In this document: positions 10,436 through 58,297 of the stretch, piece by piece
Layout of the letters: each line of letters opens with the position of its first letter
Numbering within the stretch: position 1 is the stretch's first letter
Notes under the pieces: generated by a model
What the model was told of the DNA's origin: nothing
Databases searched by the model: none
Seen by the model: the letters and a program-made list of their open reading frames with translations, nothing else
Assembly: GCA_947258655.1 (NCBI GenBank)
Contig: CAMYJD010000021.1
Coordinates: 8,476 to 72,475, forward strand
Direction: 5' to 3'
DNA length: 64,000 bases
DNA from: an uncultured Gammaproteobacteria bacterium
GTDB taxonomy: Bacteria; Pseudomonadota; Gammaproteobacteria; JAADHQ01
Position numbers and translations under genes: made by a program

Positions 10436-10627
10436 CTAATAGCACAATACACTCTGCAAAAATTTACTGCCGTGTTTTTCCTCGTGCGCTTTCAGATAGG
10501 CATCCAGTAACTCCTGTTCAGCACATTCCCCCAGCTCACGCATGACAGCAAGCCTGATATCGGCATCCATCAAACCACTTACAATATCAAACTCCATGGT
10601 CATACCATTGAATGTAATATCGACCAT
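10436..10627 (-). CDS. Hypothetical small protein
   Basis: 63-aa ORF, 13 nt from the next gene. No recognised motif. Confidence 0.4.
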   Translation of the reverse strand: MVDITFNGMTMEFDIVSGLMDADIRLAVMRELGECAEQELLDAYLKAHEEKHGSKFLQSVLCY

Positions 10628-10676
10628 TATCGGTTCCCCCCAAATCTTAAAGTAAATTAAACCCCGTCAAGATCCA

Positions 10677-12386: not shown

Positions 12387-12689
12387 CTACTGTGCTTCAC
12401 TGGCACATCCCTGGCTGTCGAATACCAGCGTGCGTGGCATCTCATCGCCTTCTAACAGTATTGCCTTTTCCAGCACACCTTGCTGGTTATACTCATAATG
12501 ATGAATGAATTCGATTTCGCCATAGACGACCTTCTCAATGATTTTTACACGATCATGATCGTCATAATAGGCCTTGAAATAAGTAATTCGGTTATCCAGT
12601 CCATCACTATCCAGCTCATTGACCAGTAGCAATGGTAATTTTATCCCGGTATAGGAAATAAAATAACGACAGTTTGATTCAGATTCCAC
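12387..12689 (-). CDS. Hypothetical protein
   Basis: 100-aa ORF overlapping the upstream NifX-like gene by 11 nt. Confidence 0.5.
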   Translation of the reverse strand: MESESNCRYFISYTGIKLPLLLVNELDSDGLDNRITYFKAYYDDHDRVKIIEKVVYGEIEFIHHYEYNQQGVLEKAILLEGDEMPRTLVFDSQGCASEAQ

Positions 12690-13038
12690 TTATCCTGTCT
12701 CCGTCATTTGTTATATAGTCCAGTAGCGATGGTTCTATTTCCTCCCAGGCATATTGTGAAACTGCCGTTATCCCGCGTTGCGCCAGTTTTTCTGACGGAC
12801 TATCACCAATCTTGGCGACAAATACGGCATTACAGTCCTTGATAGATTCAAGAATACCGCTCAATGCACTTTTATCTGAGTGGCCACCAAGACAGTAATG
12901 ACTCACCTCACGTTTCTCCAGTAATTGACATACCTGATTTGTCACTTCATAAATAAAAAATTGTTTCGCATGACCAAAATGTTCACTAATAGCCAGTCCT
13001 TCCTTGCTGGCAACAGCAATACGCGTGACACATCTCAT
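12679..13038 (-). CDS. NifX/NifB-C-terminal-like dinitrogenase cofactor-binding domain protein
   Basis: 119 aa. IAVAS......SEHFGHAK.F.IYEV is the hallmark opening of the NifX/NafY/NifB-C domain. Confidence 0.8.
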   Translation of the reverse strand: MRCVTRIAVASKEGLAISEHFGHAKQFFIYEVTNQVCQLLEKREVSHYCLGGHSDKSALSGILESIKDCNAVFVAKIGDSPSEKLAQRGITAVSQYAWEEIEPSLLDYITNDGDRISGI

Positions 13039-43396: not shown

Positions 43397-44962
43397 CTAT
43401 ATCTGCCGCATCTTAATATTCAATGTTTGAATACGATAGGCAATCTGCCTGGGCGTCATGTCCAGTAGCCTTGCTGCTTTTGCCTGCACCCAACCCGCCT
43501 CTTCGAGGGCTGCAATAACACGTTCCCGCTCGTCGAGGGATGGATCATTAAAATCTATTTTTTCGACTGACTGGGGAGTATCCCTGGGCAGAAGCTTGTC
43601 ATCGAGTCCAGTTAGATTAATGGCCTCCCGGTCGATATTCCCTTCTTCACACATAATCGCCGCTCGCTCAAGACAGTTTTCCAGTTCACGAACATTGCCG
43701 GGCCAGTCATATCGCATCAATTGACGAATCGCACTGTCTTTGAGCATCAACGTCCTGTCCTGCTGACGAGCTATCTTGTCAACAAGAAAGCATGCCAGAT
43801 CAGGAATATCCTCGACGCGCTCACGCAAGGGTGGCATATCGATGGGCATTACATTCAGTCTGTAATAAAGATCTTCCCTGAAATTGCCATTTTCAACTTC
43901 TTCTTCGAGATCGCGATTTGTTGCCGCGATTACTCGCACGTCGACATTCAGCGTTTGCAAACCGCCAACGCGTTCAAACTCTCCTTCCTGTAGCACACGT
44001 AATAGTTTTGCCTGGAATGCTGGCGAGATCTCGCCGATCTCATCAAGAAATATTGTGCCTCCATTTGCCTGCTCAAACCTGCCTTTTCTTTGACTGACTG
44101 CCCCGGTAAAGGCACCCTTCTCATGACCGAAGAGTTCGGATTCCAGCAAATTATCTGGCAATGCAGCGCAGTTCAGTTTTACGAAAGCACCACTGGCGCG
44201 CGGTGAGTTATAGTGAATCGCATTGGCAATCAGCTCTTTACCTGTACCCGATTCACCTCTGATCAGTACTGTCGTGTTCCATTTAGCTACCTGACGAATC
44301 TGTTCAAAGATACGTCGCATAACAGGAGTATGGCCAATGATACTGTCAAAACCATGTTCTGCCTTGACCTCACGTCTGAGATCATCACGCTCGGCCTTCA
44401 GGGCCATTCTCTCGACTTCAACTGTTTTCGACAGACGTACTGTCTGTCCAATCAGGTTTGCCGCCATCTCCAGGAAATGAGCCTGCTCCTCGAGAAAATC
44501 AATATGAGGTGGTTGCGCAGCCAGAACTCCTGCGGGCTTACCTGATTCACCTATCATGATTGGAACGCCAATAAAAGGCAGCTCCTGATCATAGATACCC
44601 AGGCGATCCAGGAACCTGGCCTCGTCGGAAATTCGCTCGACGACCACAGGTTCTCTCGCTTGCATGATCGTGCCGATAATGCCTTCCCCGGATCGGTAAC
44701 GGACATCATCACTGATTTCAATCTTGTCATTATGTAGTGCACTGACCATCAGCTCACCACTGTCTTCATCAAACAATGTTACTACACCATGCGTCAGCTT
44801 TCCCCGGTCATGCAACAACTTCAATACTTCCTTCAATGTGTTATGCAAATCCAGGGAACGACTGAGTACCGCACTGACCTCGTAAAGTGTATTTAATTCT
44901 GCCTCTACCAGGGTAAGGCGATTCATTTCCGGTTCAGTAGTATTCATTAATGCATTACTCAT
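43397..44962 (-). CDS. nifA: NifA, sigma-54-dependent nif transcriptional activator
   Basis: 521 aa. N-terminal GAF, central AAA+ (GESGTGKE, GAFTGA, ELFGHEKGAFTGA) and C-terminal HTH (AKAARLLDMTPRQIAYRIQ). Confidence 0.95.
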   Translation of the reverse strand: MSNALMNTTEPEMNRLTLVEAELNTLYEVSAVLSRSLDLHNTLKEVLKLLHDRGKLTHGVVTLFDEDSGELMVSALHNDKIEISDDVRYRSGEGIIGTIMQAREPVVVERISDEARFLDRLGIYDQELPFIGVPIMIGESGKPAGVLAAQPPHIDFLEEQAHFLEMAANLIGQTVRLSKTVEVERMALKAERDDLRREVKAEHGFDSIIGHTPVMRRIFEQIRQVAKWNTTVLIRGESGTGKELIANAIHYNSPRASGAFVKLNCAALPDNLLESELFGHEKGAFTGAVSQRKGRFEQANGGTIFLDEIGEISPAFQAKLLRVLQEGEFERVGGLQTLNVDVRVIAATNRDLEEEVENGNFREDLYYRLNVMPIDMPPLRERVEDIPDLACFLVDKIARQQDRTLMLKDSAIRQLMRYDWPGNVRELENCLERAAIMCEEGNIDREAINLTGLDDKLLPRDTPQSVEKIDFNDPSLDERERVIAALEEAGWVQAKAARLLDMTPRQIAYRIQTLNIKMRQI

Positions 44963-44967
44963 TCGCT

Positions 44968-46608
44968 TTACTCTGTCAACAATGAAGCTGAAACTTTTAA
45001 GGGCAGACCAAGTCTCATCAAACAGCCATCTGTGTATGACGGATCAATCTCGATATATCCACCATGCTGTAACGCAACTTCCTGTGCGATGGTTAATCCC
45101 ATTCCTGAACTATCCGGACTATTCACCCATTCCGAATTAAATGGTTCGAATATAGAAATACGCTTCTCTGCTGGAATTCCCGGCCCCGTATCTCGCACAA
45201 CAAGCTCGATGTGATCCTCACCTGGAGCCGTTGAAATCACGATTTCCCGTCTTTTGCAACCGGGCTCGTTTAATGCTGTAATCGCATTATCTATCAATTG
45301 TTTGAAAGCGGATCTCAAGCCATATTGAAGCCCCAGAATGACTGGTAGATCCTTGCTGATCTGCCAGTCTATTACAACACCTTCCTTCAACATGCGCTCT
45401 GTTGACAAATCAAGGACATCGCGGATGACTTCATTCAGATTCACCGGCGCCATCGCTTCCTGCTGCTGCCTGGGTATGGAATTGCGAATGACATCTTGAA
45501 CTTTTTCACCAGTATGCATAATTTCAACGAGCGCCTGGTACAACGGCTCATCATGCTTTCCTTCTCTGCGTTCCATTATTTTCAAGGCTGCATTAACGAT
45601 ATTTAACGGTCCCTGCAACTGGAACAATGCACCCGATAAGGTTTCCCTTACACTATGCAGTAATTGTTGCTCTGCCATCAACGCACGTAAAGCATTAGCC
45701 CTGACCTGTTCCTGCTGCTGCTTTTGTATTGTGATTTCACTGGCCACCAGCAGTAAGTGCCGGTCATCATGCGTTGCGAAGTAGCTGTCAGCGCCGATTC
45801 CAGCACTGTTCATCCAGACACCGGAACACGAAAACCATCTTGGCGGAGAGCCTTCTCCGGGATCATACTCGACTTCTATATCAAAAAAATCGCGACCTTC
45901 ATTGGCACTGGCATCAAAACCACCCTCGATTACGTCATTCAGATAAGTCAGAAAAACTGCAGCAGGCTCTTCACCTCTCATATCACCGATCAGTTTTTTG
46001 TAGGCCTGGTTATCAAGTAATACCTTGCCAAACCGGTCGAGCATGGCAATACTGACCGGTGCCGCATCGACAACCGATTCAATTAAAACCTTCTGGTTAT
46101 TAACTTTATTTTCAAGCTCATGAACTTCGGTTACATCACGATGAATGGCCATGTAATAACTGGCTTCGCCATTCATGCCCAGAATCGGCGCTACTGTCAG
46201 GTCAGCCAGATAACGATCTCCGCTTTTCGTGGAATTGATCAGGACACCATTCCAGGTCTTTTTATCAAGTAAATGATTCCACAGGTCCTTGTATACTTCT
46301 ACCGGTGTCACCTTGTAGGACAGGATAGATTGATTTTTTCCGATGATTTCATCCTGATCATACCCGGTAAGCCGGACAAAGGATTTGTTGACATAGAGGA
46401 TATTGGCACTGGTGTCGGTAATTGAAATCGCTACCGGCGAATGCTCAACCGCCTCCAGAAAAACCCTGGGGGGCAGAATGCCATCCTTGGTTTTTACAAT
46501 GCGACCAAATGCCTCTATGACTTCTTCAGTCATTCCATTCGGAGATGATGAAAAGAAATCACCTAACGCCTGGGCCATTGTTTCCTTTGTAGAACTTCTG
46601 GGTGACAT
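44968..46608 (-). CDS. nifL: NifL, redox/nitrogen-sensing anti-activator of NifA
   Basis: PAS domain SITDTSANILYVNKSFVRLTGYDQDEIIGKNQSIL (very like A. vinelandii NifL), a second PAS, and a GHKL-like C-terminus (DTGPGIP, GMGLTIAQE). I chose the ATG at 46608 (GAGG upstream). 5-nt gap to nifA. Confidence 0.9.
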   Translation of the reverse strand: MSPRSSTKETMAQALGDFFSSSPNGMTEEVIEAFGRIVKTKDGILPPRVFLEAVEHSPVAISITDTSANILYVNKSFVRLTGYDQDEIIGKNQSILSYKVTPVEVYKDLWNHLLDKKTWNGVLINSTKSGDRYLADLTVAPILGMNGEASYYMAIHRDVTEVHELENKVNNQKVLIESVVDAAPVSIAMLDRFGKVLLDNQAYKKLIGDMRGEEPAAVFLTYLNDVIEGGFDASANEGRDFFDIEVEYDPGEGSPPRWFSCSGVWMNSAGIGADSYFATHDDRHLLLVASEITIQKQQQEQVRANALRALMAEQQLLHSVRETLSGALFQLQGPLNIVNAALKIMERREGKHDEPLYQALVEIMHTGEKVQDVIRNSIPRQQQEAMAPVNLNEVIRDVLDLSTERMLKEGVVIDWQISKDLPVILGLQYGLRSAFKQLIDNAITALNEPGCKRREIVISTAPGEDHIELVVRDTGPGIPAEKRISIFEPFNSEWVNSPDSSGMGLTIAQEVALQHGGYIEIDPSYTDGCLMRLGLPLKVSASLLTE

Positions 46609-46720
46609 AATTACTACCTCGATTAAATCGCATCTGTTTGAATTAAAGGCAAGAATCATTCCCAACATCAGAAAGTGCGATAAAACAACGGTGACAGGTC
46701 TCGAATCCGACTGATATAAA

Positions 46721-46736
46721 TGTAGTTTTTCCTACA
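46721..46736. promoter_or_regulatory. NifA-type UAS embedded in a perfect 9-bp palindrome
   Basis: TGTAGTTTTTCCTACA within TAAATGTAG-tttttc-CTACATTTA (46717-46740). Confidence 0.45.
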
Positions 46737-46761
46737 TTTAAACTCAGCTTCACAGTGTGTT

Positions 46762-46777
46762 TGTAGCTATCACAACA
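46762..46777. promoter_or_regulatory. NifA-type UAS upstream of rnf
   Basis: TGTAGCTATCACAACA, 66-81 nt upstream of the -24. Confidence 0.55.
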
Positions 46778-46842
46778 TTTAGTCTGGACTATAAATGCAG
46801 AAAAATGCACAAAAATACACCATTTGCGGCCAGTACTTATGC

Positions 46843-46858
46843 TGGCATGGATGATGCA
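46843..46858 (+). promoter_or_regulatory. Sigma-54 promoter of rnfABCDGEH (TGGCAT-N5-ATGCA)
   Basis: GCTGGCATGGATGATGCAAT. Its position makes the ORF-track start at 46867 unlikely and favours the ATG at 46897. Confidence 0.65.
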
Positions 46859-46896
46859 ATAGATCTATGCAGGTGAACCCGGAGAAACCGTACCTG

Positions 46897-47478
46897 ATGA
46901 CTGAATACCTGTTGCTGCTGCTTGGTACTGCACTGGTGAATAACGTGGTACTTGTAAAGTTCCTTGGACTTTGTCCCTTTATGGGCGTATCCAACAAACT
47001 CGATTCCGCGTTAGGCATGGGGTTTGCAACAACCTTTGTGTTGACGATTGCTGCTGTAGCCAGCTGGTTGCTGGAATATTTTGTACTGATGCCTCTGGAT
47101 ATCGGTTTTCTACGGATCCTGACATTCATACTGGTGATTGCGGCAGTAGTACAGTTTACCGAGATGGTCGTGCGCAAGTTTTCACCGGCCTTGTATCAGA
47201 TCCTGGGTATTTTTCTGCCTCTGATTACGACTAATTGTGCAGTACTGGGCGTCGCGTTGCTTAATATCCAGGAAGAGCACAATTTTCTCAAAAGTGTTTT
47301 TTTCGGCTTCGGGTCAGCCATTGGTTTTACCCTGGTCATGGTCATTTTTGCGGGCCTGCGTGAAAGGCTTGCTCTGGCACAGGTACCCTCCGTGTTTGCC
47401 GGTGCTCCGATAGGTTTTATTGTAGCCGGATTACTATCACTGGCTTTTATGGGTTTTTCCGGATTAGTCACCAACTAA
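46897..47478 (+). CDS. rnfA: Rnf electron-transport complex subunit A
   Basis: Starts [32 protein letters not shown], the canonical RnfA N-terminus. Confidence 0.92.
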
Positions 47479-47493
47479 GGGAGGGAGATTACT

Positions 47494-48024
47494 ATGTTTT
47501 CCGCACTTGTCAGTCTTGCATTTCTTGGACTCATTCTGGGTTCAGCACTCGGTATAGCCGCACGCTATTTGAAGGTTGAAGGCAACCCCCTGGCTGATGA
47601 AATTGAATCCATGCTGCCGGGATCACAATGTGGACAATGCGGTTTCCCGGGATGCACACCTGCAGCGAGCGCCCTTGCAGAAGGCAATGCAGCGGTTACA
47701 TTATGCCCTCCTGGAGGAAAGTCTCTTGCCATGGAACTGGCAGCCAAACTGGGGGTTGAAGCGAATCTTTCGGAAGTAGAAGACAAAGCACCCCGTACTG
47801 CAACCATCCAGGAGACACTATGCATTGGCTGCATGAAATGTTTCAAGCGCTGTCCTACGGATGCCATACTCGGTGGTCCAAAACAGATCCATGCTGTCAT
47901 CAGTGATGCCTGCACTGGTTGTGAGAAATGCGTTGATATCTGTCCTACTGAATGCGTGTCGATGAAACCGGTCGCAGTTACGTTGCAGAACTGGCATTGG
48001 CCCAAACCTTCTATCTCGGCCTGA
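47494..48024 (+). CDS. rnfB: Rnf complex subunit B (Fe-S)
   Basis: 176 aa. TM anchor, CGQCGFPGC, CIGCMKCFKRCP and CTGCEKCVDICP. Confidence 0.92.
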   Translation: MFSALVSLAFLGLILGSALGIAARYLKVEGNPLADEIESMLPGSQCGQCGFPGCTPAASALAEGNAAVTLCPPGGKSLAMELAAKLGVEANLSEVEDKAPRTATIQETLCIGCMKCFKRCPTDAILGGPKQIHAVISDACTGCEKCVDICPTECVSMKPVAVTLQNWHWPKPSISA

Positions 48025-48033
48025 GGTGAATAT

Positions 48034-49515
48034 ATGCCCATCCGTGGACTCAAGCTGTTTAAAATCCGTGGTGGTGTTCATCCGAATGCCAACAAGGATG
48101 CTACGCATGATAAACCCATAACAGATTTACCGATACCGGAATTACTGCGAATCCCGCTGCTTCAGCATATTGGCAGCCCCGCTGAACCTGTTGTAAAACG
48201 CGGTGAACATGTTCTGAAAGGACAGCTACTGGCACGTCCCCAGGGCGTTATATCGGCACCCGTGCATGCACCCACCTCAGGAAGAATCATCTCTATTGGT
48301 AAATTTCAGGCGCCCCATCCTTCCGGGCTCCCGGTCATGACGATAACACTGAAATCCGATGGCAAGGATGAATGGGTTGACAGCGATGCAGTGACGGATC
48401 CGTTTGACATGGAACCCGCAGAGATCGCCGAGAAGGTATCGGATGCCGGCATTGTCGGGATGGGTGGTGCTACTTTTCCGTCCGCAGTAAAACTGGGGCT
48501 CGGCAATAGATACCAGCTGGAGAAACTGATCATCAATGGTGCTGAATGCGAACCCTATCTGACCTGTGATGACAGGTTAATGCAGGAATCTGCTGACGAA
48601 ATAATTGATGGCATTCGCATCATGATCCATACATTGGGTGTCAAGGAAGCGATCATTGCCATCGAAAAAAACAAACCCGGAGCAATCAATGCCATCAGTG
48701 TAGCTGCAGCTGATTATCCTGAAATCAAGGTCATCGGTGTGCCGGTTCAATACCCGATGGGATCTGAAAAACACCTTACCCAGACACTGACAGGTAAAGA
48801 GACACCTGCCAGAGCACTGACTGCCGATCTGGGTATTGTTGTACACAATGTAGCGACTGCCTATGCCATCCATCAGGCACTGAGACAATCGAAGCCCCTG
48901 TTGTCCAGAATTGTGACAGTCACCGGAGGCGCGATCAGTAAACCAGGTAATTTTCGCGCCTTGATCGGTACGCCAGTATCACATTTTATCGAACATTGCG
49001 GTGGACTGACTGAAGAGCCAGCAAAATTATTGCTGGGTGGACCAATGATGGGCCAACCCCTCCCCAGTACCAAGGCACCCATTATCAAGGGTAGCGGCGG
49101 CATACTGGCCCTGACTGAGAAAGAGCTCAGGTTGAAAAATCCTTCACCCTGTATACGTTGCGCCAGTTGCGTCAATGTCTGCCCATGTGGACTGCTTCCA
49201 CTTGAAATGGCTTCACATGCCAGGGCAGGTGATCTGGAAGGCGCTGCCGATTTCGGTTTGATGGATTGTATTTCCTGCGGCTCATGTTCCTATGTTTGTC
49301 CATCTCATATACCGCTGGTGCAATATTTCAATTATGCCAAGGGCGCGTTGACTGAAAAACAACGGGCACAGCATAAGCAGGAAGAGATAAAGCGATTGAT
49401 TGCTGCACGCGCTGAACGCATGGAAAAACAGAAACAGGCGAAACGGGAAGCCATGGCCCGTCGAAAAGCAGAAATGGCTGAAAAAAAGAAACAACAGTCT
49501 GAGGCCAGTGCATGA
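48034..49515 (+). CDS. rnfC: Rnf complex subunit C
   Basis: 493 aa. GMGGATFP, CIRCASCVNVCP, CISCGSCSYVCP and a Lys/Glu-rich tail. Confidence 0.95.
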   Translation: MPIRGLKLFKIRGGVHPNANKDATHDKPITDLPIPELLRIPLLQHIGSPAEPVVKRGEHVLKGQLLARPQGVISAPVHAPTSGRIISIGKFQAPHPSGLPVMTITLKSDGKDEWVDSDAVTDPFDMEPAEIAEKVSDAGIVGMGGATFPSAVKLGLGNRYQLEKLIINGAECEPYLTCDDRLMQESADEIIDGIRIMIHTLGVKEAIIAIEKNKPGAINAISVAAADYPEIKVIGVPVQYPMGSEKHLTQTLTGKETPARALTADLGIVVHNVATAYAIHQALRQSKPLLSRIVTVTGGAISKPGNFRALIGTPVSHFIEHCGGLTEEPAKLLLGGPMMGQPLPSTKAPIIKGSGGILALTEKELRLKNPSPCIRCASCVNVCPCGLLPLEMASHARAGDLEGAADFGLMDCISCGSCSYVCPSHIPLVQYFNYAKGALTEKQRAQHKQEEIKRLIAARAERMEKQKQAKREAMARRKAEMAEKKKQQSEASA

Positions 49516-50600
49516 AGAGCATAAATCCCGTCGGCGGACCCTTTACGCATGACAGGGTCAGTGTTGGTAAAACCATGTCACTGGTGATGCTTGCCCTGCT
49601 TCCGGCTACCTTTTTCGGCTTTTATCTGTATGGCTGGCCGGCAATATTCCTGTTCTCGGTCACTGTGCTGGCGGCATTACTTGCCGAAGCCGGTAGTCTT
49701 TACATAGCAGGAAAACCTGTTCGACCCTTTCTGTTAGATGGTTCGGCAATACTGACAGGCTGGTTACTCGCGATGACCTTGCCTCCCTGGGCTCCATGGT
49801 GGATTGGTGTAGTCGGTGCTTTCCTGGCGATTATTGTCGGCAAACATGTATTTGGGGGCATAGGTCAAAACCTGTTCAATCCGGCAATGGTTGCCAGAGT
49901 CGCCCTGTTGATTTCATTTCCGCTGGAAATGACATTATGGATCAGTCCACAGCCATTGATGGCCACAGGTTCGCCAGGATTTTTCGAATCGCTGCTGATC
50001 ACTTTTTCCAACAGTTTCCATATCGACAGTGTGAGCAGTGCCTCTGTACTCAGTCATATCAAGACCGAACTCAGTCGTGATATACCATTGGAGCAAACGC
50101 TCGATTCTACCTATGGTCTTATACCTTCGGTGCTGGGGATTACAGCGGGTAGTATGGGTGAAACTTCATCAATATTTATCTTGGCAGGCGGTCTGTTTCT
50201 GCTGATGAAGAGAATTATTTCCTGGCATATCCCGTTTTCTATGATAATGACGATAGCCGTCATTTCAACACTGTTTAACTGGTATGATCCATCCCGTTAT
50301 GCCGGCGCAAGTATTCACTTATTCAGTGGCGCGTCAATGCTAGGCGCATTTTTCATTGCCACTGACCTGGTAACATCGCCAGTCACTCGATTGGGACAAA
50401 TTATCTTTGGTATTGGTTGCGGATTACTGGTCTACACGATCCGCACCTGGGCTGCCTATCCGGAAGGTATGGGTTTTGCGGTTTTACTGATGAACGCAGT
50501 CACTCCACTCATTGATCATTATATTCGGCCACGAATCTATGGTCGTGACGGAAAAGGAAAGCCCGTACAGTATCCTGAAAATATTGGAGCCGAAAAGTGA
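49512..50600 (+). CDS. rnfD: Rnf complex subunit D
   Basis: 362-aa polytopic membrane protein. FNPAMVARV and ATDLVTSPVT (FMN attachment region). Confidence 0.93.
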   Translation: MKSINPVGGPFTHDRVSVGKTMSLVMLALLPATFFGFYLYGWPAIFLFSVTVLAALLAEAGSLYIAGKPVRPFLLDGSAILTGWLLAMTLPPWAPWWIGVVGAFLAIIVGKHVFGGIGQNLFNPAMVARVALLISFPLEMTLWISPQPLMATGSPGFFESLLITFSNSFHIDSVSSASVLSHIKTELSRDIPLEQTLDSTYGLIPSVLGITAGSMGETSSIFILAGGLFLLMKRIISWHIPFSMIMTIAVISTLFNWYDPSRYAGASIHLFSGASMLGAFFIATDLVTSPVTRLGQIIFGIGCGLLVYTIRTWAAYPEGMGFAVLLMNAVTPLIDHYIRPRIYGRDGKGKPVQYPENIGAEK

Positions 50601-51280
50601 CTGAAGAATCCACGCCAGGATATAAAAATAATGTCAGTTACCAGGCACTGCTGCTTGGTGGATTCGCCCTGCTGTCTGCAGTCCTTTTAATCTTTGGCAA
50701 TGTATCCACGAAGGATGTCATTCAAAAGATGTTACTGGAAGACACTCGCAAATCGGTTAACCATGTAATTCCCGGAAATATTCATGATAACAATTTACTC
50801 GAGGACAAGATCAGCATCAAATACAAGAATCAGGAGATTATGGTGTATCGTGCAAAGCTGAAAAACACTGTCAGCGCTGTTGCCTTCCAGGTAAGCGGCC
50901 AGGGATATGGTGGCCGGATCCTGCTGATACTGGGTGTTAAAGCCGATGGCAATATTCTTGGTGTACGTGTACTTTCACATGCCGAAACTCCCGGACTGGG
51001 AGACAAGATAGAAGCAAACAGGGACCCATGGATCTACTCATTCAATGGCCTGTCACTGGAAAACACCCCCATGTCTGACTGGGCAGTCAAAAAAGATGGT
51101 GGCAGGTTTGACCAGTTCAGCGGTGCAACAATCACCCCGCGCGCAGTCGTGAATGCAATAAAATCCGGTCTGCTATTTTTCAGGGAAAACCGCGATACGT
51201 TGATTAAAGAAGATACTGCAGGTAAACCCGCAACAAGCAAGGGTAAACATAAACAGAGCCCGGCAGGAGAAGTATCATGA
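50597..51280 (+). CDS. rnfG: Rnf complex subunit G
   Basis: 227 aa with a GTG start. HAETPGLGDKIE and FSGATITPRAV (covalent FMN motif). Confidence 0.9.
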   Translation: MTEESTPGYKNNVSYQALLLGGFALLSAVLLIFGNVSTKDVIQKMLLEDTRKSVNHVIPGNIHDNNLLEDKISIKYKNQEIMVYRAKLKNTVSAVAFQVSGQGYGGRILLILGVKADGNILGVRVLSHAETPGLGDKIEANRDPWIYSFNGLSLENTPMSDWAVKKDGGRFDQFSGATITPRAVVNAIKSGLLFFRENRDTLIKEDTAGKPATSKGKHKQSPAGEVS

Positions 51281-51969
51281 GTAACGGATACAGAACACTG
51301 ATGCGTGAAGGCATGTGGACCAATAATGTCGTATTTTCGCAAATGCTGGCCTTATGCCCGTTACTGGCTGTAACCGGGACCGCAACCAATGGCCTGGGGA
51401 TGGGTCTTGCCTCAACATTTGTTATGGTCTTATCCGGTTTTTCCGTGGCCCTGTTCCGAAATATCATCACGCCTGAAGTCCGCATACCGGTTTTTGTATT
51501 GATCATTGCCACCCTGGTCACATTGGTGGATATGGGCATGAACGCATGGCTGCATGATCTGCACAAGGTACTCGGACTGTTCATTCCGCTGATAGTGACA
51601 AACTGCGCCATACTGGGCAGGGCTGAATCCTATGCTTCGCGTAATTCTGTAATATCATCCACATTTGATGGCCTGATGATGGGGCTTGGTTTCACATTTG
51701 CACTTGTTACACTGGGCGTGGTTCGGGAGATCATTGGTAGTGGCACTCTTTTTGCCAATGCATCCCTTCTGCTTGGAGATGTCTTTTCATTTCTGGAGCT
51801 TACCCTTATCCAGGACTACAAGGGGTTTCTGTTAATGATACTTCCACCCGGCGGATTTCTTGCGTTGGGTTTTTTACTTGCGGGAAAACGTCTACTGGAC
51901 AGGAGGATTGAAGACCTGTCTACAGCCACAAGTTCAGCAAGCCTGGAAACAAATGCAGTGACAAACTGA
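51277..51969 (+). CDS. rnfE: Rnf complex subunit E
   Basis: 230 aa. NNVVFSQMLALCPLLAVT and PLIVTNCAILGRAE. Confidence 0.93.
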   Translation: MSNGYRTLMREGMWTNNVVFSQMLALCPLLAVTGTATNGLGMGLASTFVMVLSGFSVALFRNIITPEVRIPVFVLIIATLVTLVDMGMNAWLHDLHKVLGLFIPLIVTNCAILGRAESYASRNSVISSTFDGLMMGLGFTFALVTLGVVREIIGSGTLFANASLLLGDVFSFLELTLIQDYKGFLLMILPPGGFLALGFLLAGKRLLDRRIEDLSTATSSASLETNAVTN

Positions 51970-51983
51970 ACAGGTGAAAATAT

Positions 51984-52244
51984 ATGAACGTTGGAATTGC
52001 GTACGCGAATAAAACTAAACAAATCTGGATGAAACTGGAAGTGCCAGATGGCAGCACAGTCCAACAGGCTATTGAGTTATCAGGTGTACTTGAACGATTC
52101 CCGGAAATAGACCTGCAAACACAAAAAGTGGGTATTTTCGGCAAGCTGACAAAACTCGATTCCGTACTGGAAAATGGCAATCGCGTAGAGATATACAGAC
52201 CCATCACTGCCGATCCTGAAACCGCTGAAAGGCGAGATAGATAA
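51984..52244 (+). CDS. rnfH: RnfH family ubiquitin-like protein
   Basis: 86 aa. V.IAYA........L.VP.G.TV..AI..SG; GIFGK......L..G.RVEIYRP. Confidence 0.85.
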   Translation: MNVGIAYANKTKQIWMKLEVPDGSTVQQAIELSGVLERFPEIDLQTQKVGIFGKLTKLDSVLENGNRVEIYRPITADPETAERRDR

Positions 52245-52410
52245 AACCTGTAATATCTGAACCAATCCAGTATATATTTTTTAATTTATTATAATTGTTA
52301 TTAAATAGCAAAAGTAAATCACAGTTAATACCGCATATGGAATGAAGCTTTCCAACTCAGCAACTGACACGACATCCCGGTACGAAAAACAACATAATAA
52401 AATATACAAT

Positions 52411-52426
52411 TGTCACATTAGGAACA
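52411..52426. promoter_or_regulatory. NifA-type UAS
   Basis: TGTCACATTAGGAACA, 65-80 nt upstream of the -24 at 52491. Confidence 0.55.
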
Positions 52427-52490
52427 TTCCAGATTCACAAGCATCCATTTTTTGTCTAGTTATTTCAGGTGCTTATTAGATTTATCAACA

Positions 52491-52506
52491 TGGCATGTGG
52501 TTTGCT
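52491..52506 (+). promoter_or_regulatory. Sigma-54 promoter (TGGCAT-N5-TTGCT) of the rhd-grx-bolA-nafY operon
   Basis: CATGGCATGTGGTTTGCTTA. It lies inside the 52469 ORF extension, which favours the ATG at 52544. Confidence 0.65.
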
Positions 52507-52543
52507 TATACATAGTTCAATAGATAAACAATGGTATTGCAAC

Positions 52544-53308
52544 ATGGCGTATAAAAACTTACCCGCAAACCACGTAACTGACTTCCTGAGCAACGATGGA
52601 GTCACTGTACTGGATATGCGTGATGAACATAGTTTTAAATCAGGCCATCTTGATGGTTCACTAACTGCTAGTGATGCCAATATGAAAAGCTTGATCAAAT
52701 CCGGAAAACATGACCTACCCACCCTGATTTATTGCTACCACGGAAACAGCAGCCGCGATCTTGCGAGTTTTTTCGTTGCGCTGGGATTTTCACAGGTATA
52801 TAACCTGGAGGGTGGCTGGGAGGCATGGAAAAAGTATCAGCAATTGGAAACCTTGATCATCCAGAATAACGATATAAACCGCTGGATACAAAAACACGGT
52901 TTTGACGCCAACAACCTGAACAACAGAATTGAAAATGGAATGTCGCCCATTATGACAGCAGTCATCGAAGGTAATATAAAGATACTGCAAATACTGATTG
53001 AAAATAATGCTGATCTAAATCTGCTTAATGATGATGAAAATAATGCCTTGTGGTTTGCCTGTTTCAAAGAAGACATGACAAGCATTGATATACTGATTAA
53101 ACACGGAATTAATATCGATCATCAGAATATAAACGCTGCTACCGCGCTTATATACGCTGCCTCTGCGGGTAAATATACAGTCGTAGAAGCCCTGATTACT
53201 GCAGGTGCTGATATCAACAAAGCCACACTGGATGGCTTTAATGCACTGGACAGCGCAGCTACTCTGCCAATTCTTAAACTCCTGAAACCACTGACTGCCG
53301 CGGCATAA
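52544..53308 (+). CDS. Rhodanese (RhdN-like) fused to ankyrin repeats
   Basis: N-terminal single rhodanese domain with active-site loop CYHGNSS. C-terminal ~150 aa has 4 ankyrin-like repeats (MSPIMTAVIEGN..ILQILIENNADLN..; ..ALWFAC......ID.LIKHG.NID; ATALIYAASAGK..VVEALI.AGADIN). Confidence 0.8.
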   Translation: MAYKNLPANHVTDFLSNDGVTVLDMRDEHSFKSGHLDGSLTASDANMKSLIKSGKHDLPTLIYCYHGNSSRDLASFFVALGFSQVYNLEGGWEAWKKYQQLETLIIQNNDINRWIQKHGFDANNLNNRIENGMSPIMTAVIEGNIKILQILIENNADLNLLNDDENNALWFACFKEDMTSIDILIKHGINIDHQNINAATALIYAASAGKYTVVEALITAGADINKATLDGFNALDSAATLPILKLLKPLTAAA

Positions 53309-53330
53309 CTATTCCTTTAGGACATGTACT

Positions 53331-53645
53331 ATGAATACTGAAGATAAGATAAGACAACAACTGGCCGAGAATCCCGTCATCCTTTACATGAAAGGAACAC
53401 CAGACATGCCCAGTTGCGGTTTTTCTGCAAAAGCAGTAGCTGCGCTTAAATCAACGGACATTGATTTCGCCTATGTTAATGTACTTGCCTCTCCCTTCAT
53501 CATGGAAAAGCTTCCTGATGTCTCCGATTTCCCAACCTTTCCACAATTGTTTATCAAAGGTGAAATTATTGGCGGCAGCGACATCGTCGAGGAAATGCTG
53601 GCAAATGGCGAACTGCTTCCAATGTTGGAATCTGCAACCGCCTGA
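53331..53645 (+). CDS. Monothiol glutaredoxin (Grx4/Grx5-nif type)
   Basis: 104 aa. V.LYMKGTPDMPSCGFS active site; PQLFI.GE.IGG.DI. Confidence 0.92.
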   Translation: MNTEDKIRQQLAENPVILYMKGTPDMPSCGFSAKAVAALKSTDIDFAYVNVLASPFIMEKLPDVSDFPTFPQLFIKGEIIGGSDIVEEMLANGELLPMLESATA

Positions 53646-53657
53646 GAGAGGTGAACC

Positions 53658-53924
53658 ATGCACGAGAATGAAATCATTGCCAGAATTACAGCTCTTTATC
53701 CGGAAGCCGTCATTGATCTTTCAGGAGAAGACTGCTCCTTTGAGCTTTACATCATCAGCAAACAGTTCGAAGGCATGAATACGCTACAACGCCAGCAATC
53801 TATTCTATCAATATTCAAGAATGAACTGGCCAGTGGCAAATTACATGCACTGTCAATCAAAGCCATGACACCGGAGCAACAATCAAGCCAGTCTGGTGCT
53901 GGTCTGGTACACATTACTTTATGA
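53658..53924 (+). CDS. BolA-family protein
   Basis: 88 aa. F.L.IIS..FEG...L.RQQ.I......EL..G.LHALSIKA.TP.E. Confidence 0.8.
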   Translation: MHENEIIARITALYPEAVIDLSGEDCSFELYIISKQFEGMNTLQRQQSILSIFKNELASGKLHALSIKAMTPEQQSSQSGAGLVHITL

Positions 53925-53931
53925 GGTCAAT

Positions 53932-54663
53932 ATGGCAGAGCTAAACCTGGAACGCGATACAGCTCTGAGAATAGCGCTTGCCGCGCGCATTCTACCGGAT
54001 ATCGATATCGCACAATTAATTGATGTCCTGGATGAAACGCTGGGGCGGCCACTCAGTATTGAAAAGCTCTCACGCATCACCGTCACTGATCTGAAAACCG
54101 GCCTTGGCAGCCTTGATGGTGAAGAGGACGCCGAGGACATCGGGATTGGCCTTGATCCGATGAAGAACGCGGTCAGGATACTCTGGGGCGAAAGTGAGGG
54201 AGAAGACGACCTACCCATACCCGAGGCATACATTGATGGTGACATACCCGACTCGATCAGGGTTGCCATTGCCTCTAACAGTACAGATAATCTCGATGGC
54301 CACTTCGGCTCCTGTTTACGCTTTCTGATTTATCAGGTATCCAGTGAAGAATATCAGCTTATTGATATTCGTTCAGCTGCTGCAGCGGAATTAAGTGATG
54401 ACCGCAATGCATTCAGGGCCAGCCTGATCAATGATTGTCAGATCGTATATATTGTATCAGTCGGCGGCCCAGCCGCAGCAAAAATTATTCGCGCGGGTGT
54501 TTATCCTATCAAGAAAATCGATGGGGGTAGCGCAGAAGATGCGCTTAAGGAATTACAGCCGGTAATGGTTAATTCCCCTCCTCCCTGGCTTGCAAAGATT
54601 CTCGGAATCTCTGAAAAAAAACGTCTGAAAAATTACCAGGGTAATGAATTCATGGAAGAATAA
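53932..54663 (+). CDS. nafY: NafY/NifY-type FeMo-co carrier, second paralogue
   Basis: 243 aa from MAELNL, with GAGG upstream. ALRIALAARILPDIDI..LIDVLDE N-domain and HFGSCLRFLIYQV NifX-like domain. Confidence 0.85.
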   Translation: MAELNLERDTALRIALAARILPDIDIAQLIDVLDETLGRPLSIEKLSRITVTDLKTGLGSLDGEEDAEDIGIGLDPMKNAVRILWGESEGEDDLPIPEAYIDGDIPDSIRVAIASNSTDNLDGHFGSCLRFLIYQVSSEEYQLIDIRSAAAAELSDDRNAFRASLINDCQIVYIVSVGGPAAAKIIRAGVYPIKKIDGGSAEDALKELQPVMVNSPPPWLAKILGISEKKRLKNYQGNEFMEE

Positions 54664-54666
54664 AAA

Positions 54667-54825
54667 TCAGGCCCGATAACCTTCGTACTCATGGTTATCT
54701 TCAATCATCAACTTGATCAGCTTGGGGTGAACAAAGAGCTTCTCTTTTCCTGACTGAATCTCTTTTAATACACCAATGTCACATAACTGCTTTAAATATG
54801 TTGAAGCTGTCTGCATGGGATCCAT
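54667..54825 (-). pseudogene. Remnant of a Fic-family protein C-terminal winged-helix region
   Basis: My hand translation of the minus strand gives MDPMQTASTYLKQLCDIGVLKEIQSGKEKLFVHPKLIKLMIEDNHEYEGYRA*. The QTAS.YLK.L...GVL.E...G.EKLF..P.L..L pattern is typical of Fic-protein C-termini. Upstream frames carry stops and frameshifts, and no Fic HPFxxGNGR core is present. Confidence 0.4.
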
Positions 54826-55093
54826 CTATGCCATGGGCGGGATGATTCACTTCCAGTTCTATGATTATTTTCTAGTTGCCCTGGCGGTATTGATCTATGG
54901 ATTGATTGTTGTTCGACCTGATATCGATGTGAGACGTTCAATCTACCTACTATCAAAGTGAGTTATAAGCGAGATGGAACGGCCTAGATGGTCTGGAAAA
55001 TCGATTTGAATAGTACAACTGTTATTTTATAGTAAAAGCTTATATAGCATGTGGTTATTCATGCTATGTAAGTTACTAAAAATGCAAGAGATT

Positions 55094-55201
55094 ATGGCGC
55101 GCCCGGCACGATTATTCGCTTCACTCACCCCTTCGGGGTCGCCGTCGCAAGCTCCGGCGATCTTCGCAGCAGAGCCGCTTGTCGAACGTATTTCTAATAT
55201 A
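55094..55201 (+). repeat. 108-nt structured repeat, copy A
   Basis: 102/108 identical to 56964-57071, in direct orientation. It contains ACCCC-UUCG-GGGU and UCGCCG-N10-CGGCGA hairpins. The 5' 20 nt is shared with copy B. Confidence 0.85.
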
Positions 55202-55243
55202 TACGTCGCACGTTCGAACCGAGCCACAGGACGCAGATCAAAT

Positions 55244-55276
55244 AAAAAGGCCCACCGAATGGTGAGCCTTTTTATT
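55244..55276. terminator. Bidirectional intrinsic terminator-like hairpin
   Basis: AAAAAGGCCCACC-gaat-GGTGAGCCTTTTT: 8-bp stem with one mismatch, an A-run before and a T-run after. Confidence 0.6.
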
Positions 55277-55282
55277 TGATAT

Positions 55283-55302
55283 ATGGCGCGCCCGGCACGA
55301 TT
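55283..55302 (+). repeat. Partial copy B: 20-nt 5' segment of the repeat
   Basis: ATGGCGCGCCCGGCACGATT is identical to the first 20 nt of copies A and C. The following ~100 nt differ but carry inverted matches to the copy A region (55348-55366 vs 55205-55223, 17/19). Confidence 0.8.
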
Positions 55303-55553
55303 TGCTGGAGCGAAGCGTAAGTACACCTGATGAAGTCCGCAGGGATTCTAGGTGCGAACGTGCGACCGCCTGGTTCGTAGTCGAACTGCCTAAATTATTT
55401 AACCATTTGATATTTATTAATATTTTACTAACATTTTGTACTATAAAATCGATAGTCGTATATTGATAAGTCATTGAATTATAATGAATCAGTTTATTTG
55501 AATAGTACAAATTACATCGACCAAAGTAGTGATCCATTTACAGCTATCGTATG

Positions 55554-56252
55554 TTAGATTTGTTCCGACCATGAACTCATAAGTTTCAGATTATTCTCTA
55601 TCGCACTTGCCGATTCAGGGTTGTTGAGTAAGCCCGGTAACACATTCAAGAAATCGTCATTTAATAGCGTTTTGGCTTGTTCTGAAAAGAACTCTTTTAA
55701 ATCGCTCGTGCAATCCATTAATTCAATCATTAATCGCTTCCTGTTTTCTAACACAAAAACGATATCTTCCAGATCATGACTGAAAAAATCACCTTCACCA
55801 CGTCCAGCGTATGCTTCGAATTTTGTCGCGATAAAATAGGCGGGACTGACGACCCGTATCTTTATACCGCTGGGTAAAGCAACCTCACTCGCTTCTGCAA
55901 TTGCAGCTTTGTACCAACGATTCGAAAAACCTAATATATTCTCGTCAATTGGCATATCATCAAGCTTGACTCTTCCAATGTTTGTATCAATAAGCCAGCG
56001 ACAAACCGGACCGTTAGTATCTACACGAAAACCAAGTTCACGCAATTTTTGCGAAAAACTATGATACTGTGCCAGGGTTGTTACATCGACTATAACGTCA
56101 ACGTCTTCAGTTTTCCGAATCCCATGATGCGCTGCTTCGTCCACAAATAACACCGTAGTACTCCCACCAACGAACGTAACACTTGGTAAAAGCTCACCTA
56201 GCGAAGAAGCAATCGCTTCTAGTTGCATGATATTAACTTCCTTGTTTCTCAT
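55554..56252 (-). CDS. Nucleotidyltransferase-fold protein, AbiEii-like toxin candidate
   Basis: 232 aa. The GGS-X19-DVD motif with RKTEDVDV resembles the GG...R.T.D[IL]D signature of AbiEii/DUF1814 NTases. ATGA overlap with the upstream wHTH gene. Confidence 0.6.
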   Translation of the reverse strand: MRNKEVNIMQLEAIASSLGELLPSVTFVGGSTTVLFVDEAAHHGIRKTEDVDVIVDVTTLAQYHSFSQKLRELGFRVDTNGPVCRWLIDTNIGRVKLDDMPIDENILGFSNRWYKAAIAEASEVALPSGIKIRVVSPAYFIATKFEAYAGRGEGDFFSHDLEDIVFVLENRKRLMIELMDCTSDLKEFFSEQAKTLLNDDFLNVLPGLLNNPESASAIENNLKLMSSWSEQI

Positions 56253-56773
56253 TCTTTTCCTTTAATTAAACTGGTTAACATTTCTCTCGCTATTTTCAAT
56301 TCTCTGGGTCTACCACCACGGATAGCTTCAAGTAATGACATAACACGATACACATTTTCATCATGGCTTGCTGCAAAAGGCACTGAATCATGTATCGGCG
56401 AGATTAAGGCTCCATCATACTCTCCACCCGGTACCGACCATACAAATGGAGGACTCGGCGGAACAACTTCACTTTCGAGCACAGGACAATTCCATGAGGT
56501 GGCCATACCTCTACCATAACCAATACTCTCCTGGGGATAAGCATAACGAACGCCATAGCAAAGCCATTCCGACAAGGCCCCTGATTCAGCAAAGATATCA
56601 CCAGAACGTTCAACAAGCAGCTTAGATGCAATTAATCGTTTAGTGCCTTTACTAACCTCACTAGCGCTTATACCAATCACTTCTGCCAGATTACGGACAC
56701 TACTTTCCTGCTTATCCCGTCTAAGAGACCAGTACTTGATAGCGATTAAAGTATCTTGTCGTTTTAGCTCCAT
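56249..56773 (-). CDS. Winged-helix regulator, AbiEi-like antitoxin candidate
   Basis: 174 aa. N-terminal wHTH (SVRNLAEVIGISASEVSKGTKRLIASKLL) plus a ~100-aa C-terminal domain. Confidence 0.55.
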   Translation of the reverse strand: MELKRQDTLIAIKYWSLRRDKQESSVRNLAEVIGISASEVSKGTKRLIASKLLVERSGDIFAESGALSEWLCYGVRYAYPQESIGYGRGMATSWNCPVLESEVVPPSPPFVWSVPGGEYDGALISPIHDSVPFAASHDENVYRVMSLLEAIRGGRPRELKIAREMLTSLIKGKE

Positions 56774-56963
56774 ATAATTGTTTCCTATTTCGAAACAAGA
56801 AACATATTAGGTCATAACAAATCATATTGTCAACTATGTGCACAAAACTAAGTGGGGATAAAAAAACGAGTGACTTTAATTCAATAGTACAATGAATAGT
56901 ACAGAAAAAGTAAAAAAGCAGCTACCGATCATCTCAATAACTGCTTGATTTAATATAGATTAA

Positions 56964-57071
56964 ATGGCGCGCCCGGCACGATTATTCGCTTCGCTCACCC
57001 CTTCGGGGTCGTCGTCGCAAGCTCCGACGATCTACGCAACAGAGCTGCTTGTCGAACGTATTTCTAATATA
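56964..57071 (+). repeat. 108-nt structured repeat, copy C
   Basis: Direct repeat of 55094-55201 with 6 substitutions. Two of them (C->T at 57012, G->A at 57027) are the two partners of one base pair in the 6-bp stem. Confidence 0.85.
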
Positions 57072-57080
57072 GGTAATAAC

Positions 57081-57140
57081 GGGGTCAGAGAACAATTAAT
57101 GCTAATATTAGAAAGAATTGTTCTCTGACCCCCTTTTTTT
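57081..57140 (+). terminator. Strong rho-independent terminator
   Basis: GGGGTCAGAGAACAATT ... AATTGTTCTCTGACCCC: a perfect 17-bp stem followed by TTTTTTT. Confidence 0.8.
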
Positions 57141-57758: not shown

Positions 57759-58297
57759 AATATATCTGCCCGCCTAATACTTTGTATCGTAAACAATTTT
57801 AGCTCCAAATTGATATATACGACTTTAATAATTAGTTTATTTCCCGTATAATACTCGTTTTTACAGTATTTTATACCAATAAACAATTATTTTGGACACG
57901 AAATATACTTATCGATAATGGTAATTACTGCGCCGATTGAAACCATGCCCAGCAACGACTACCGTGTAAACGAAAAACGCTGGCGGCGAAAACACCTGTT
58001 TCGGGAACGACGCCTTCGCCCCACCGTTCGGCTTGCCCCCCCGCCTTCTGCTCATCCTAGCCGCCCCGGCGACTATGGGATGGTGGCTGGATGTGCCGCC
58101 TTTCGGCCTCCTCGTCGGGGGAGTGTCGCCATGATAGGACATACTGATCGGCAGGGCCCATTTTCGCAAGACCAACCAAATGTCAATGACAGTTGTACTA
58201 ATACCGGCAGACTGCACACAACATATTCCTATGACAAAGGAAATACCAGTTCCCCTGCCAGTTAGCACGATAAAAAGTAAAACCTGAGGAGCAAATA

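Follow-up and report, generated by a model that had tools for sequence, protein, structure and literature searches.

RtT RNA of Escherichia coli (Rfam RF00391, gene rttR) belongs to a known but poorly understood kind of element, made up of units of ~170–190 nt that are repeated in the trailer of a tRNA and end in the last 19 nt of that tRNA, including CCA. Egan and Landy (1978) and Bosl and Kersten (1991) are said to have described 178-bp repeats downstream of tyrT/tyrV, each with 19 nt of the tRNA-Tyr end, and RtT is reportedly, after Bosl and Kersten, a processed 171-nt RNA from the tyrT transcript that may affect the response to amino-acid starvation. Here we analyzed a 64,000-nt stretch of DNA from an uncultured Gammaproteobacteria bacterium (contig CAMYJD010000021.1; hereafter the window), which contains two 108-nt direct repeats, one on each side of a toxin-antitoxin gene pair. 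We consider it probable that these repeats are divergent members of the RtT kind of tRNA-linked element, that they are read on the minus strand, and that they are relics displaced from an array that now flank a toxin-antitoxin islet. The initial annotation of this DNA had proposed a novel structured RNA; the architecture of the repeats is that of E. coli RtT RNA, and they belong to this known kind of element rather than to a new RNA class. Two sources cite Bosl and Kersten (1991) on RtT (PMC7542023; bioRxiv 10.1101/2024.07.17.603846).

The second kind of described system to which the locus can be compared is the tDNA-integrated island (Islander; Williams 2002). Displaced tDNA fragments mark the ends of such islands, and the crossover subsites are the anticodon loop, the T loop and the T/acceptor junction (PMC4383910). 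As in these islands, the module in the window is bounded by a direct repeat identical to a tRNA 3′ end (56964–56983 and 55283–55302), in the orientation of the tRNA. Unlike them, it is without an integrase, has an RtT-like unit where a regenerated tRNA would be expected, and carries an extra 52-nt insert in the T loop.

The repeats, tRNA-Arg(ACG) and RtT RNA

The repeats, at 55094–55201 and 56964–57071, lie in the same orientation and are identical at 102 of 108 positions, a count that our recomputed alignment bore out; the six differences fall at 55123, 55142, 55157, 55164, 55169 and 55176. The first 20 nt of each repeat, ATGGCGCGCCCGGCACGATT, occur three times in the window compared with 0.00 expected, and the repeat is therefore not due to chance. 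The third copy lies at 55283–55302, and the sequence beyond it is unlike the repeats. The initial annotation had found no match to tRNA, but this 20-mer proved to be a tRNA-Arg(ACG) 3′ end. Its 18-nt core was found at 120 loci at least when reference genomes were scanned; in many of the loci listed the match is the reverse complement of the tRNA-Arg(ACG) 3′ end, often within operons of tRNA-Ser(GCU) followed by several copies of tRNA-Arg(ACG). In the sense of the tRNA, the 20-mer is composed of AAU of the T loop, the T-stem strand CGUGC, the acceptor strand CGGGCGC, the discriminator G and CCA. Because the 20-mer at the head of the repeats is antisense to the tRNA, the natural reading strand of the repeats is the minus strand.

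On that strand we refer to the cores of the repeats as unit B (56965–57061) and unit A (55095–55191). Unit B runs AUACG-UUCGA, four hairpins (H1–H4), UAAU, and CGUGC CGGGCGC G CCA, and the 3′ end of both units, AAUCGUGCCGGGCGCGCCA, is identical to the final 19 nt of tRNA-Arg(ACG). The hairpins are H1, GCRGC-UCU-GCUGC; H2, UCGYCG-GAGCUUGCGA-CGRCGA; H3, CCCC-GAA-GGGG; and H4, GY-GAA-GC. Two of these had been named in the initial annotation as present in each copy, and both are there. The four-hairpin module is closed by a T-stem remnant with a UUC/GAA extension, and the 3′ end of the unit consists of an authentic T-stem 3′ strand, acceptor 3′ strand, discriminator G and CCA. Each unit is a derivative of the 3′ half of tRNA-Arg(ACG) in which a module of ~65 nt takes the place of the 7-nt T loop. 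The full unit, again in the tRNA sense, starts with a degenerate inverted copy of the T arm and acceptor, followed by a spacer of 12–17 nt, the T-stem remnant ACG, UUCGA, H1–H4, (G)AAU-AAU, CGUGC CGGGCGC G CCA and a terminator. In unit A, which is ~189 nt in full, the inverted part lies at 55205–55234 (minus strand, GCGUCCUGUGGCUCGGUUCGAACGUGCGAC). The same UUCGAACGUGCGAC block also precedes the units of five homologous loci from other genomes and metagenomes (L060, L129, L139, L134 and L091), and in L060 it reads GCGCCCG GCACG GUUCGAA CGUGC.

RtT RNA and the window units share this order of parts, namely the T-stem 5′ strand, UUCGA, hairpins including CCC-GAA-GGG, (G)UAAU, the T-stem 3′ strand and the acceptor strand. 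The rttR sequence, CAAGG-UUCGA-C...CCCGAAGGG...GAGUAAU-CCUUC-CCCCACC-ACCA, follows this plan too, its T stem and acceptor being those of tRNA-Tyr, whereas the partner of the window units is tRNA-Arg(ACG). Units still closer in setting are found in the serV-argV-argY-argZ-argQ operon of E. coli K-12, which is of the same type, with Ser(GCU) and then copies of Arg(ACG). Here the 198-nt spacers after argV and argZ and a similar stretch after argQ each hold one unit (L121 1152–1277, 1425–1552 and 1840–1950; NC_000913 2817651–2818449, without a RefSeq feature). Each contains a hairpin, CCCGAAGGG, a second hairpin and UAAU, and ends in the 19 nt of the tRNA-Arg 3′ end, AAUCCUCCCGGAUGCACCA. They differ from the window units in their T stem (GGAGG/CCUCC), in the absence of the conserved GAGCUUGCGA loop of H2, which is lacking in E. 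coli units altogether, and in lying between functional tRNA genes without cargo. On the Rfam RtT model these Arg-linked units reach 23–33.5 bits, under the 45-bit gathering threshold; the window units also fall below it, with no RtT match at all.

We built a covariance model, R1, from eight marine tRNA-Arg-linked units (alignment A2) without any enterobacterial sequence. R1 recovered unit B with 112.5 bits (E 2e-25) and unit A with 111.7 bits, and a scan of the window with the filters off revealed no units beyond these two; the third copy of the 20-mer gave 21.7 bits. Altogether, the model matched 24 distinct full units from gammaproteobacteria and metagenomes (MAGs, metagenome-assembled genomes, of Thioalkalivibrio, Luminiphilus, Ketobacteraceae and Marinobacterium; uncultured gammaproteobacteria; metagenome contigs). 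It also matched, over the full length, the three E. coli Arg units and three units of the tyrT locus, spaced 178 nt apart and including the annotated rttR, with modest scores of 18–22 bits and rough E-values of ~1e-4, and did not match the tyrV tRNA itself.

The trailer setting of RtT is seen in relatives of the window units. The Thioalkalivibrio MAG locus L060 shows an intact tRNA-Arg(ACG), a terminator, a unit, a second terminator and a second unit with a period of 171 nt, and its units are ~70% identical to window positions 55093–55302 over 190–210 nt. A metagenome scan for the unit-specific junction gave 13 further loci, and L129, L134, L139 and L091 have the same arrangement of tRNA-Arg, terminator and unit. 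In general, the units of relatives follow an intact tRNA-Arg(ACG), often in tandem with a period of 170–190 nt, each after a terminator. In the window, by contrast, the units lie away from any intact tRNA and flank an islet, and the only tRNA piece nearby is a broken tRNA-Arg(ACG) at a distance of 189 nt from the unit. The module is also found in another tRNA: in L116 (Ketobacteraceae), positions 1363–1465, it lies within a 3′ fragment of tRNA-Ser(GCU), between tRNA-Ser and tRNA-Arg. A search of plasmids and phages with the unit plus the tRNA fragment by BLAST gave no matches.

Two further arrangements were seen among the relatives. In L091, from an uncultured gammaproteobacterium, positions 2422–2526 hold the module inside repeated 5′ fragments of tRNA-Ser, upstream of tRNA-Ser. 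L130 has three units in 10 kb (299–399, 7185–7285 and 9951–10051) and L128 has two (719–847 and 10606–10707). These are nearly identical, each comes after a conserved AT-rich arm of ~120 nt and before a terminator, and they bound ordinary genes (xanthine-dehydrogenase-like, ECF sigma factor, ABC transporter) without an integrase.

Covariation and reading strand

To assess the proposed hairpins, we examined the substitutions across the family. In the model-based alignment (A3, which was itself fitted to the model), 92.9% of the cells are paired compared with 78.6% in shuffles, none of 500 shuffles reached the observed value, and double changes occur in 21 of the 24 pairs. Slid controls were paired at 29–47%. 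In an alignment made with MAFFT only, changes on both sides were found in four of the five pairs of H2. The covariation of the family hairpins indicates that the structure is under selection, and the earlier proposal of selection on structure stands at this level. Folding of single sequences gave no comparable signal: on both strands the energies were no better than those of shuffles (z −0.26 to +1.24), and the minimum-free-energy folds did not recover the comparative structure.

The strand of the element can be read from the same data. All 24 model pairs form on the minus strand in both copies, as compared with 21 and 22 on the plus strand, and across the family G.U cells outnumber A.C cells by 52 to 13 when counted in the tRNA sense. 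The differences between copies A and B show the same pattern. Positions 55142 and 55157 pair with each other in the 6-bp stem H2, and we verified the double change from G-C to A-U described in the initial annotation. Positions 55169 and 55176, which had been offered as a further possible pair, are not each other's partners but sit in neighbouring pairs of H1; in minus-strand RNA they change G.U to A-U and G-C to G.U, and on the plus strand each produces one A.C mismatch. The change at 55123 turns U.G into C-G in H4, and 55164 is a linker position, so that all six differences are compatible with the minus-strand fold. Together with the tRNA 3′ end, these observations indicate that the element reads on the minus strand, opposite to the strand originally proposed.

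Several known classes were tried and rejected. As for a tRNA or tmRNA gene, ARAGORN and Rfam gave neither a full cloverleaf nor any tRNA-like domain bearing a tag frame (ARAGORN found 0 tRNA/tmRNA genes in the window, and the Rfam tRNA and tmRNA models had no matches in it). A two-piece tmRNA or a permuted tRNA was set aside, the acceptor 5′ strand not being conserved and being intact only in the Thioalkalivibrio copies. Integron attC sites, REP elements and MITEs resemble the units as short structured boundary repeats of small cassettes in which structure is conserved more than sequence. Unlike attC, however, the units are always tRNA-derived and have no R″/L″/L′/R′ boxes, GTTRRRY core, long imperfect palindrome or IntI; they have four separate hairpins, GTTRRRY at neither end, and no integrase among the ORFs examined. 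An assignment of the repeats to MITEs or REP elements was rejected as well, with neither terminal inverted repeats nor a target duplication found at the repeats and only these copies in 64 kb; the REP-like palindrome nearby (57075–57140) is a separate element.

The toxin-antitoxin islet and its boundaries

The segment between unit B and the broken tRNA (55381–56964) contains only two genes, a toxin and an antitoxin, and a tyrosine integrase was not found in it. The predicted toxin gene (55554–56252, minus strand) encodes a 232-aa nucleotidyltransferase of the AbiEii/AbiGii family, and the pair may be of the AbiE type (type IV). It scores 21.6 bits on PF08843, just under the cut-off of 22.5, and has 821 homologues, many with PF08843 and several named AbiEii/AbiGii toxin. 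The putative antitoxin or regulator gene (56249–56773, minus strand), whose stop overlaps the toxin start by 4 nt, encodes a 174-aa winged-helix protein with a weak MarR_2 helix-turn-helix match and without a match to the AbiEi domain. In L122–L126 and L141 the toxin is likewise preceded by a conserved partner of 173 aa. The exact toxin and antitoxin proteins of the window, for the two start choices taken, are not on record. A promoter-like site of the operon, TTGACA-18-TAATAT (10 of 12 matches), is located at 56804–56833 on the minus strand.

The downstream end of the islet is a tRNA remnant. Positions 55355–55380 (minus strand, CUACGAACCAGGCGGUCGCACGUUCG) are identical at 26 of 26 positions to the segment of tRNA-Arg(ACG) from the anticodon loop through the T loop in many genes, and the 5′ half of the tRNA is absent. 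The third 20-mer copy (55283–55302, minus strand) supplies the remainder, AAU CGUGC CGGGCGC G CCA, and acts as the downstream direct repeat of the islet. Between the two lies a 52-nt "type-2" insert (55303–55354, minus strand), which splits the T loop between UUCG and AAU and has homologues in L137 and L138; the tRNA homology is exactly contiguous across it. On this alignment, 55283–55380 is a tRNA-Arg(ACG) without its 5′ half and with the insert exactly inside the T loop. The insert is itself structured, and its homologue in L138 is flanked by an 8-nt GGTCGCAC duplication, hinting at small insertion events.

The origin of this arrangement is suggested by L122, the closest long contig, in which the toxin is 84% identical and the module is 75% identical over 1672 nt. 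There an intact tRNA-Arg(ACG) borders the module on one side; on the other is an uninterrupted 45-nt piece of the tRNA that spans anticodon loop to CCA and has a terminator behind it. Such a layout is the hallmark of islands in tRNA genes (PMC4383910) and is seen here in its canonical form, though without an integrase. The homology between the window and L122 starts exactly at the 20-mer of unit B and stops exactly at the T loop of the broken tRNA. Homologous modules in L124–L126 are without tRNA ends.

The second informative relative is L141 (CAMYJU010000007.1), the closest of those syntenic with the window over the nif-rnf region, with a NifX-like protein that is 79% identical. Its segment 10985–15616, read from the NifX-like gene on the plus strand, contains the toxin-antitoxin islet, with the toxin gene split into two 104-aa ORFs, a tRNA-Arg fragment (12419–12467), a full-length Fic gene (12667–14214) and an RtT-like unit at the contig end (15481–15602). 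On the minus strand of the window the order is unit B, toxin-antitoxin islet, tRNA fragment, terminator, unit A and a Fic remnant, so that the same islets occupy the same chromosomal site in a different order. The Fic remnant (54667–54825, minus strand) is a 52-aa ORF that holds only the C-terminal domain of a SoFic-type Fic protein, its last ~40 aa; it probably represents the cargo of a second islet, now decayed, which lay downstream of unit A. The truncated Fic gene abuts the stop of the NifX-like gene.

The comparison with L122 and L141 suggests that units A and B are displaced relics of a tandem array, and a history can be proposed. The ancestral state would be a tandem pair of units as in L060. 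By analogy with E. coli rttR, the units would be transcribed with or after the tRNA, and tRNA-processing nucleases would release them as stable RNAs resembling the tRNA 3′ half. Each unit repeats the 19–20 tRNA nucleotides that are recombined by tDNA-targeting integrases, and the 1.6-kb integrase-less islet (55381–56964) may have been inserted by integrase-mediated recombination with the tRNA-identical end of unit B. The tRNA-like left half of the islet, already with its 52-nt insert, would then have become 55303–55380, and the Fic islet downstream of unit A would have decayed.

Terminator-like hairpins follow the CCA of all three 20-mer copies on the minus strand. After unit B, an intrinsic terminator at 56916–56946 (minus strand), 18 nt past the CCA, is the first element of the islet and has a homologue in L122, behind the intact tRNA-Arg. 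After unit A, 27 nt past the CCA, a weak hairpin, AUAGCAUG-N8-CAUGCUAU, with a U-rich stretch was read from the sequence at 55044–55067 (minus strand); it is followed by the motif TTGTACTATTCAA (55006–55018), as at the start of the islet, and the flank after unit A parallels that after unit B. At 55237–55280 lies a bidirectional intrinsic terminator (inverted repeat I3, 20 nt, 95%), the minus-strand trailer terminator of the broken tRNA-Arg, whose homologues directly follow tRNA-Arg(ACG) in L139, L134 and L091. The structure at 57075–57140, on the other side of unit B, is a REP-like palindrome with 32-nt arms and T7. It is ~80% similar to palindromes in L128 (5919–5988, 8020–8089 and 8989–9051), L127 and L139, occurs once in the window, and adjoins unit B at its 5′ boundary, a position taken in unit A by the inverted tRNA piece. 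The initial annotation had assigned each repeat its own terminator from a downstream hairpin and T-run. Such structures do exist at 55237–55280 and 57075–57140, but neither is dedicated to the repeat, the former being a homologue of the tRNA-trailer terminator and the latter a palindrome.

In addition, the AT-rich arm between the toxin gene and the tRNA fragment (55381–55553, minus strand), which is 69% identical to the L122 arm, carries TTGTACTATT motifs. The TTGTACTATT(C/G)AA / ATAGTACAA motif occurs at 55006–55018, 55437–55446, 55497–55510 and 56879–56900, on either side of the toxin-antitoxin genes as well as beyond unit A, and in L122 at 5300–5325 and 6745–6760, flanking the genes. Motifs of this type may be antitoxin operators or recombinase arm sites.

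Weighing of the readings and wider occurrence

A number of observations weigh against the reading of the repeats as displaced RtT-type units. The Rfam RtT model misses the window and marine units even at E<=10. At gathering thresholds Rfam has no match in the whole window, and none of its families spans the homologous units of the four other loci that were searched. At E<=10, the region and a 206-nt slice of it gave only terminator look-alikes and a sub-threshold AaHKsRNA22 (RF02902, Aggregatibacter sRNA 22). The latter is the sole Rfam signal on the copies, at 22.7 and 15.6 bits compared with a threshold of 39.8; it matches them on the minus strand over the full length, with a hairpin, CCCC-AAA-GGGG and a GAG hairpin in common, and it also weakly matches an E. 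coli Arg-linked unit. The link to E. coli depends on the modest R1 scores given above, and the covariation figures on an alignment fitted to the model. The two window copies alone, on which the initial proposal of selection had been based, are not significant evidence for structure: six random substitutions keep all 24 pairs in 15% of simulations, and five transitions forced into paired positions keep all pairs in 7.6% of trials. Furthermore, ARAGORN found no intact tRNA in the window and the native setting is taken from other genomes; an integrase was not found in the window ORFs or beside the units in L122, L128, L130 and L141. The REP-like palindrome has replaced whatever came before unit B, and the tandem-array ancestor is a reconstruction.

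One alternative is that the units act purely at the DNA level, as strand-specific folded recombination sites or scars of a tRNA-Arg-targeting integrative system, comparable to integron attC sites at cassette boundaries, without a role as RNA. Units or tRNA fragments do bound every islet seen in the window, L122 and L141, the three units of L130 and two of L128 bound ordinary genes together with their AT-rich arm, and structure is conserved more than sequence. Folded single-stranded DNA also tolerates G.T, so that the strand bias does not prove an RNA. However, the homologous units of E. coli lie between tRNA genes without cargo and rttR is an annotated RNA product; the tandem units of L060 have nothing between them; a recombinase gene was not found in association; and the units end exactly at CCA, followed by a terminator, like a transcribed tRNA trailer. 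We regard a role confined to DNA as unlikely.

A second alternative is that the ~65-nt module is itself mobile, a miniature element targeting the conserved T-loop box GTTCGAATC in tRNA genes or fragments. This would account for its presence at the same position in fragments of Arg (window and marine loci), Ser (L116), and Tyr and Arg (E. coli), for other small inserts at the site (55303–55354, and L138 with its 8-nt duplication), and for the module in the tRNA-Ser 5′ fragments of L091. On the other hand, copies were never seen away from tRNA-derived sequence or in plasmids and phages, the window has only these, and there are neither terminal inverted repeats nor a consistent target duplication. 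Moreover, the sequence common to copies A and B reaches 12 nt beyond the T-stem remnant on the upstream side and includes the whole of the 19 nt downstream, which indicates that they are duplicates of a whole unit rather than independent insertions. We consider a mobile module of this kind quite improbable. The initial annotation had likewise offered a MITE or recombination site bracketing the toxin-antitoxin pair; the ends of the copies do act as recombination-site repeats, but the hallmarks of a MITE are absent.

The initial annotation had favored a plus-strand small RNA of ~150–180 nt in which each copy has its own intrinsic terminator. A hairpin and T-run lie downstream of both copies, a promoter-like TTGAAT-16-TATAGT is present at 55006–55033, and the hairpins can form on either strand. 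The first nucleotides of such an RNA would nevertheless be antisense to a tRNA 3′ end, and A.C mismatches would take the place of three of the 24 pairs in one copy and two in the other, against the bias of the family toward the other strand (52 to 13). The downstream structures are a conserved minus-strand tRNA-Arg trailer terminator and a dispersed palindrome, and promoter-like sites number 7 compared with a shuffled expectation of 6.1. The plus-strand RNA is hence very improbable. Finally, there is next to no chance that the repeat encodes a small protein (MARPARLFASL... on the plus strand, or a basic minus-strand peptide like the 29-aa "protamine-like" tpr annotated inside E. coli rttR): ATG ORFs do start exactly at 55094, 55283 and 56964, but this ATG is the complement of the tRNA ...CCA+U, the three frames differ in sequence or in where they stop, non-synonymous changes make up five of the six differences in the plus-strand ORF, in line with the initial view that no ORF accounts for the conservation, and substitutions in the family track base pairing rather than codons.

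Under the reading of the repeats as displaced RtT-type units, a conspicuous repeat is explained without a new RNA class, its strand is corrected and both of its supposed terminators are re-identified. Elements of the RtT type would be far more widespread than the Rfam model detects, with tRNA-Arg(ACG) and tRNA-Ser(GCU) as partners in marine gammaproteobacteria and a shared plan in which a hairpin module stands in for the T loop of a tRNA 3′ half; the present family extends and rationalizes the decades-old tyrT element of E. coli. A broader covariance model or an Rfam clan would allow the units to be annotated routinely. Since the integrase target of the tRNA 3′ end is repeated in every unit, units can serve as extra landing sites or boundaries for small islets. 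Islets bounded in this way would affect those methods of island detection in which one end is expected to hold an intact tRNA.

A wider reading, speculative and rather unlikely in our estimation, is that the units are gammaproteobacteria-wide, structure-selected mimics of the tRNA 3′ half that also act as secondary attachment sites organizing integron-like arrays of integrase-less islets. Candidates for such arrays are the toxin-antitoxin and Fic islets of the window and the ordinary-gene blocks of L130 and L128. If this were true, a trans-acting tDNA integrase that shuffles islets would explain the difference in order between the window and L141 at the same nif-flanking site. Nucleotidyltransferases of the AbiEii/MenT type are toxins that modify tRNA 3′ ends, and in a weaker variant the units could be decoys for such toxins, as encoded by the adjacent gene. 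The association of toxin and unit is not obligatory, the modules of L124–L126 being without tRNA ends.

Two features of the surroundings are recorded here. Between the MarR and methyltransferase genes, ~350 nt at 57900–58270 have long ORFs on both strands and no Pfam or Rfam match. On the other side of the locus, 43397–54663 is syntenic with L141 and contains, in this order, nifA, nifL, rnfABCDGE and genes for a rhodanese-ankyrin protein, glutaredoxin, BolA and a DIMCO_N-NifX fusion, and is ~70% identical in nucleotide sequence to L141.

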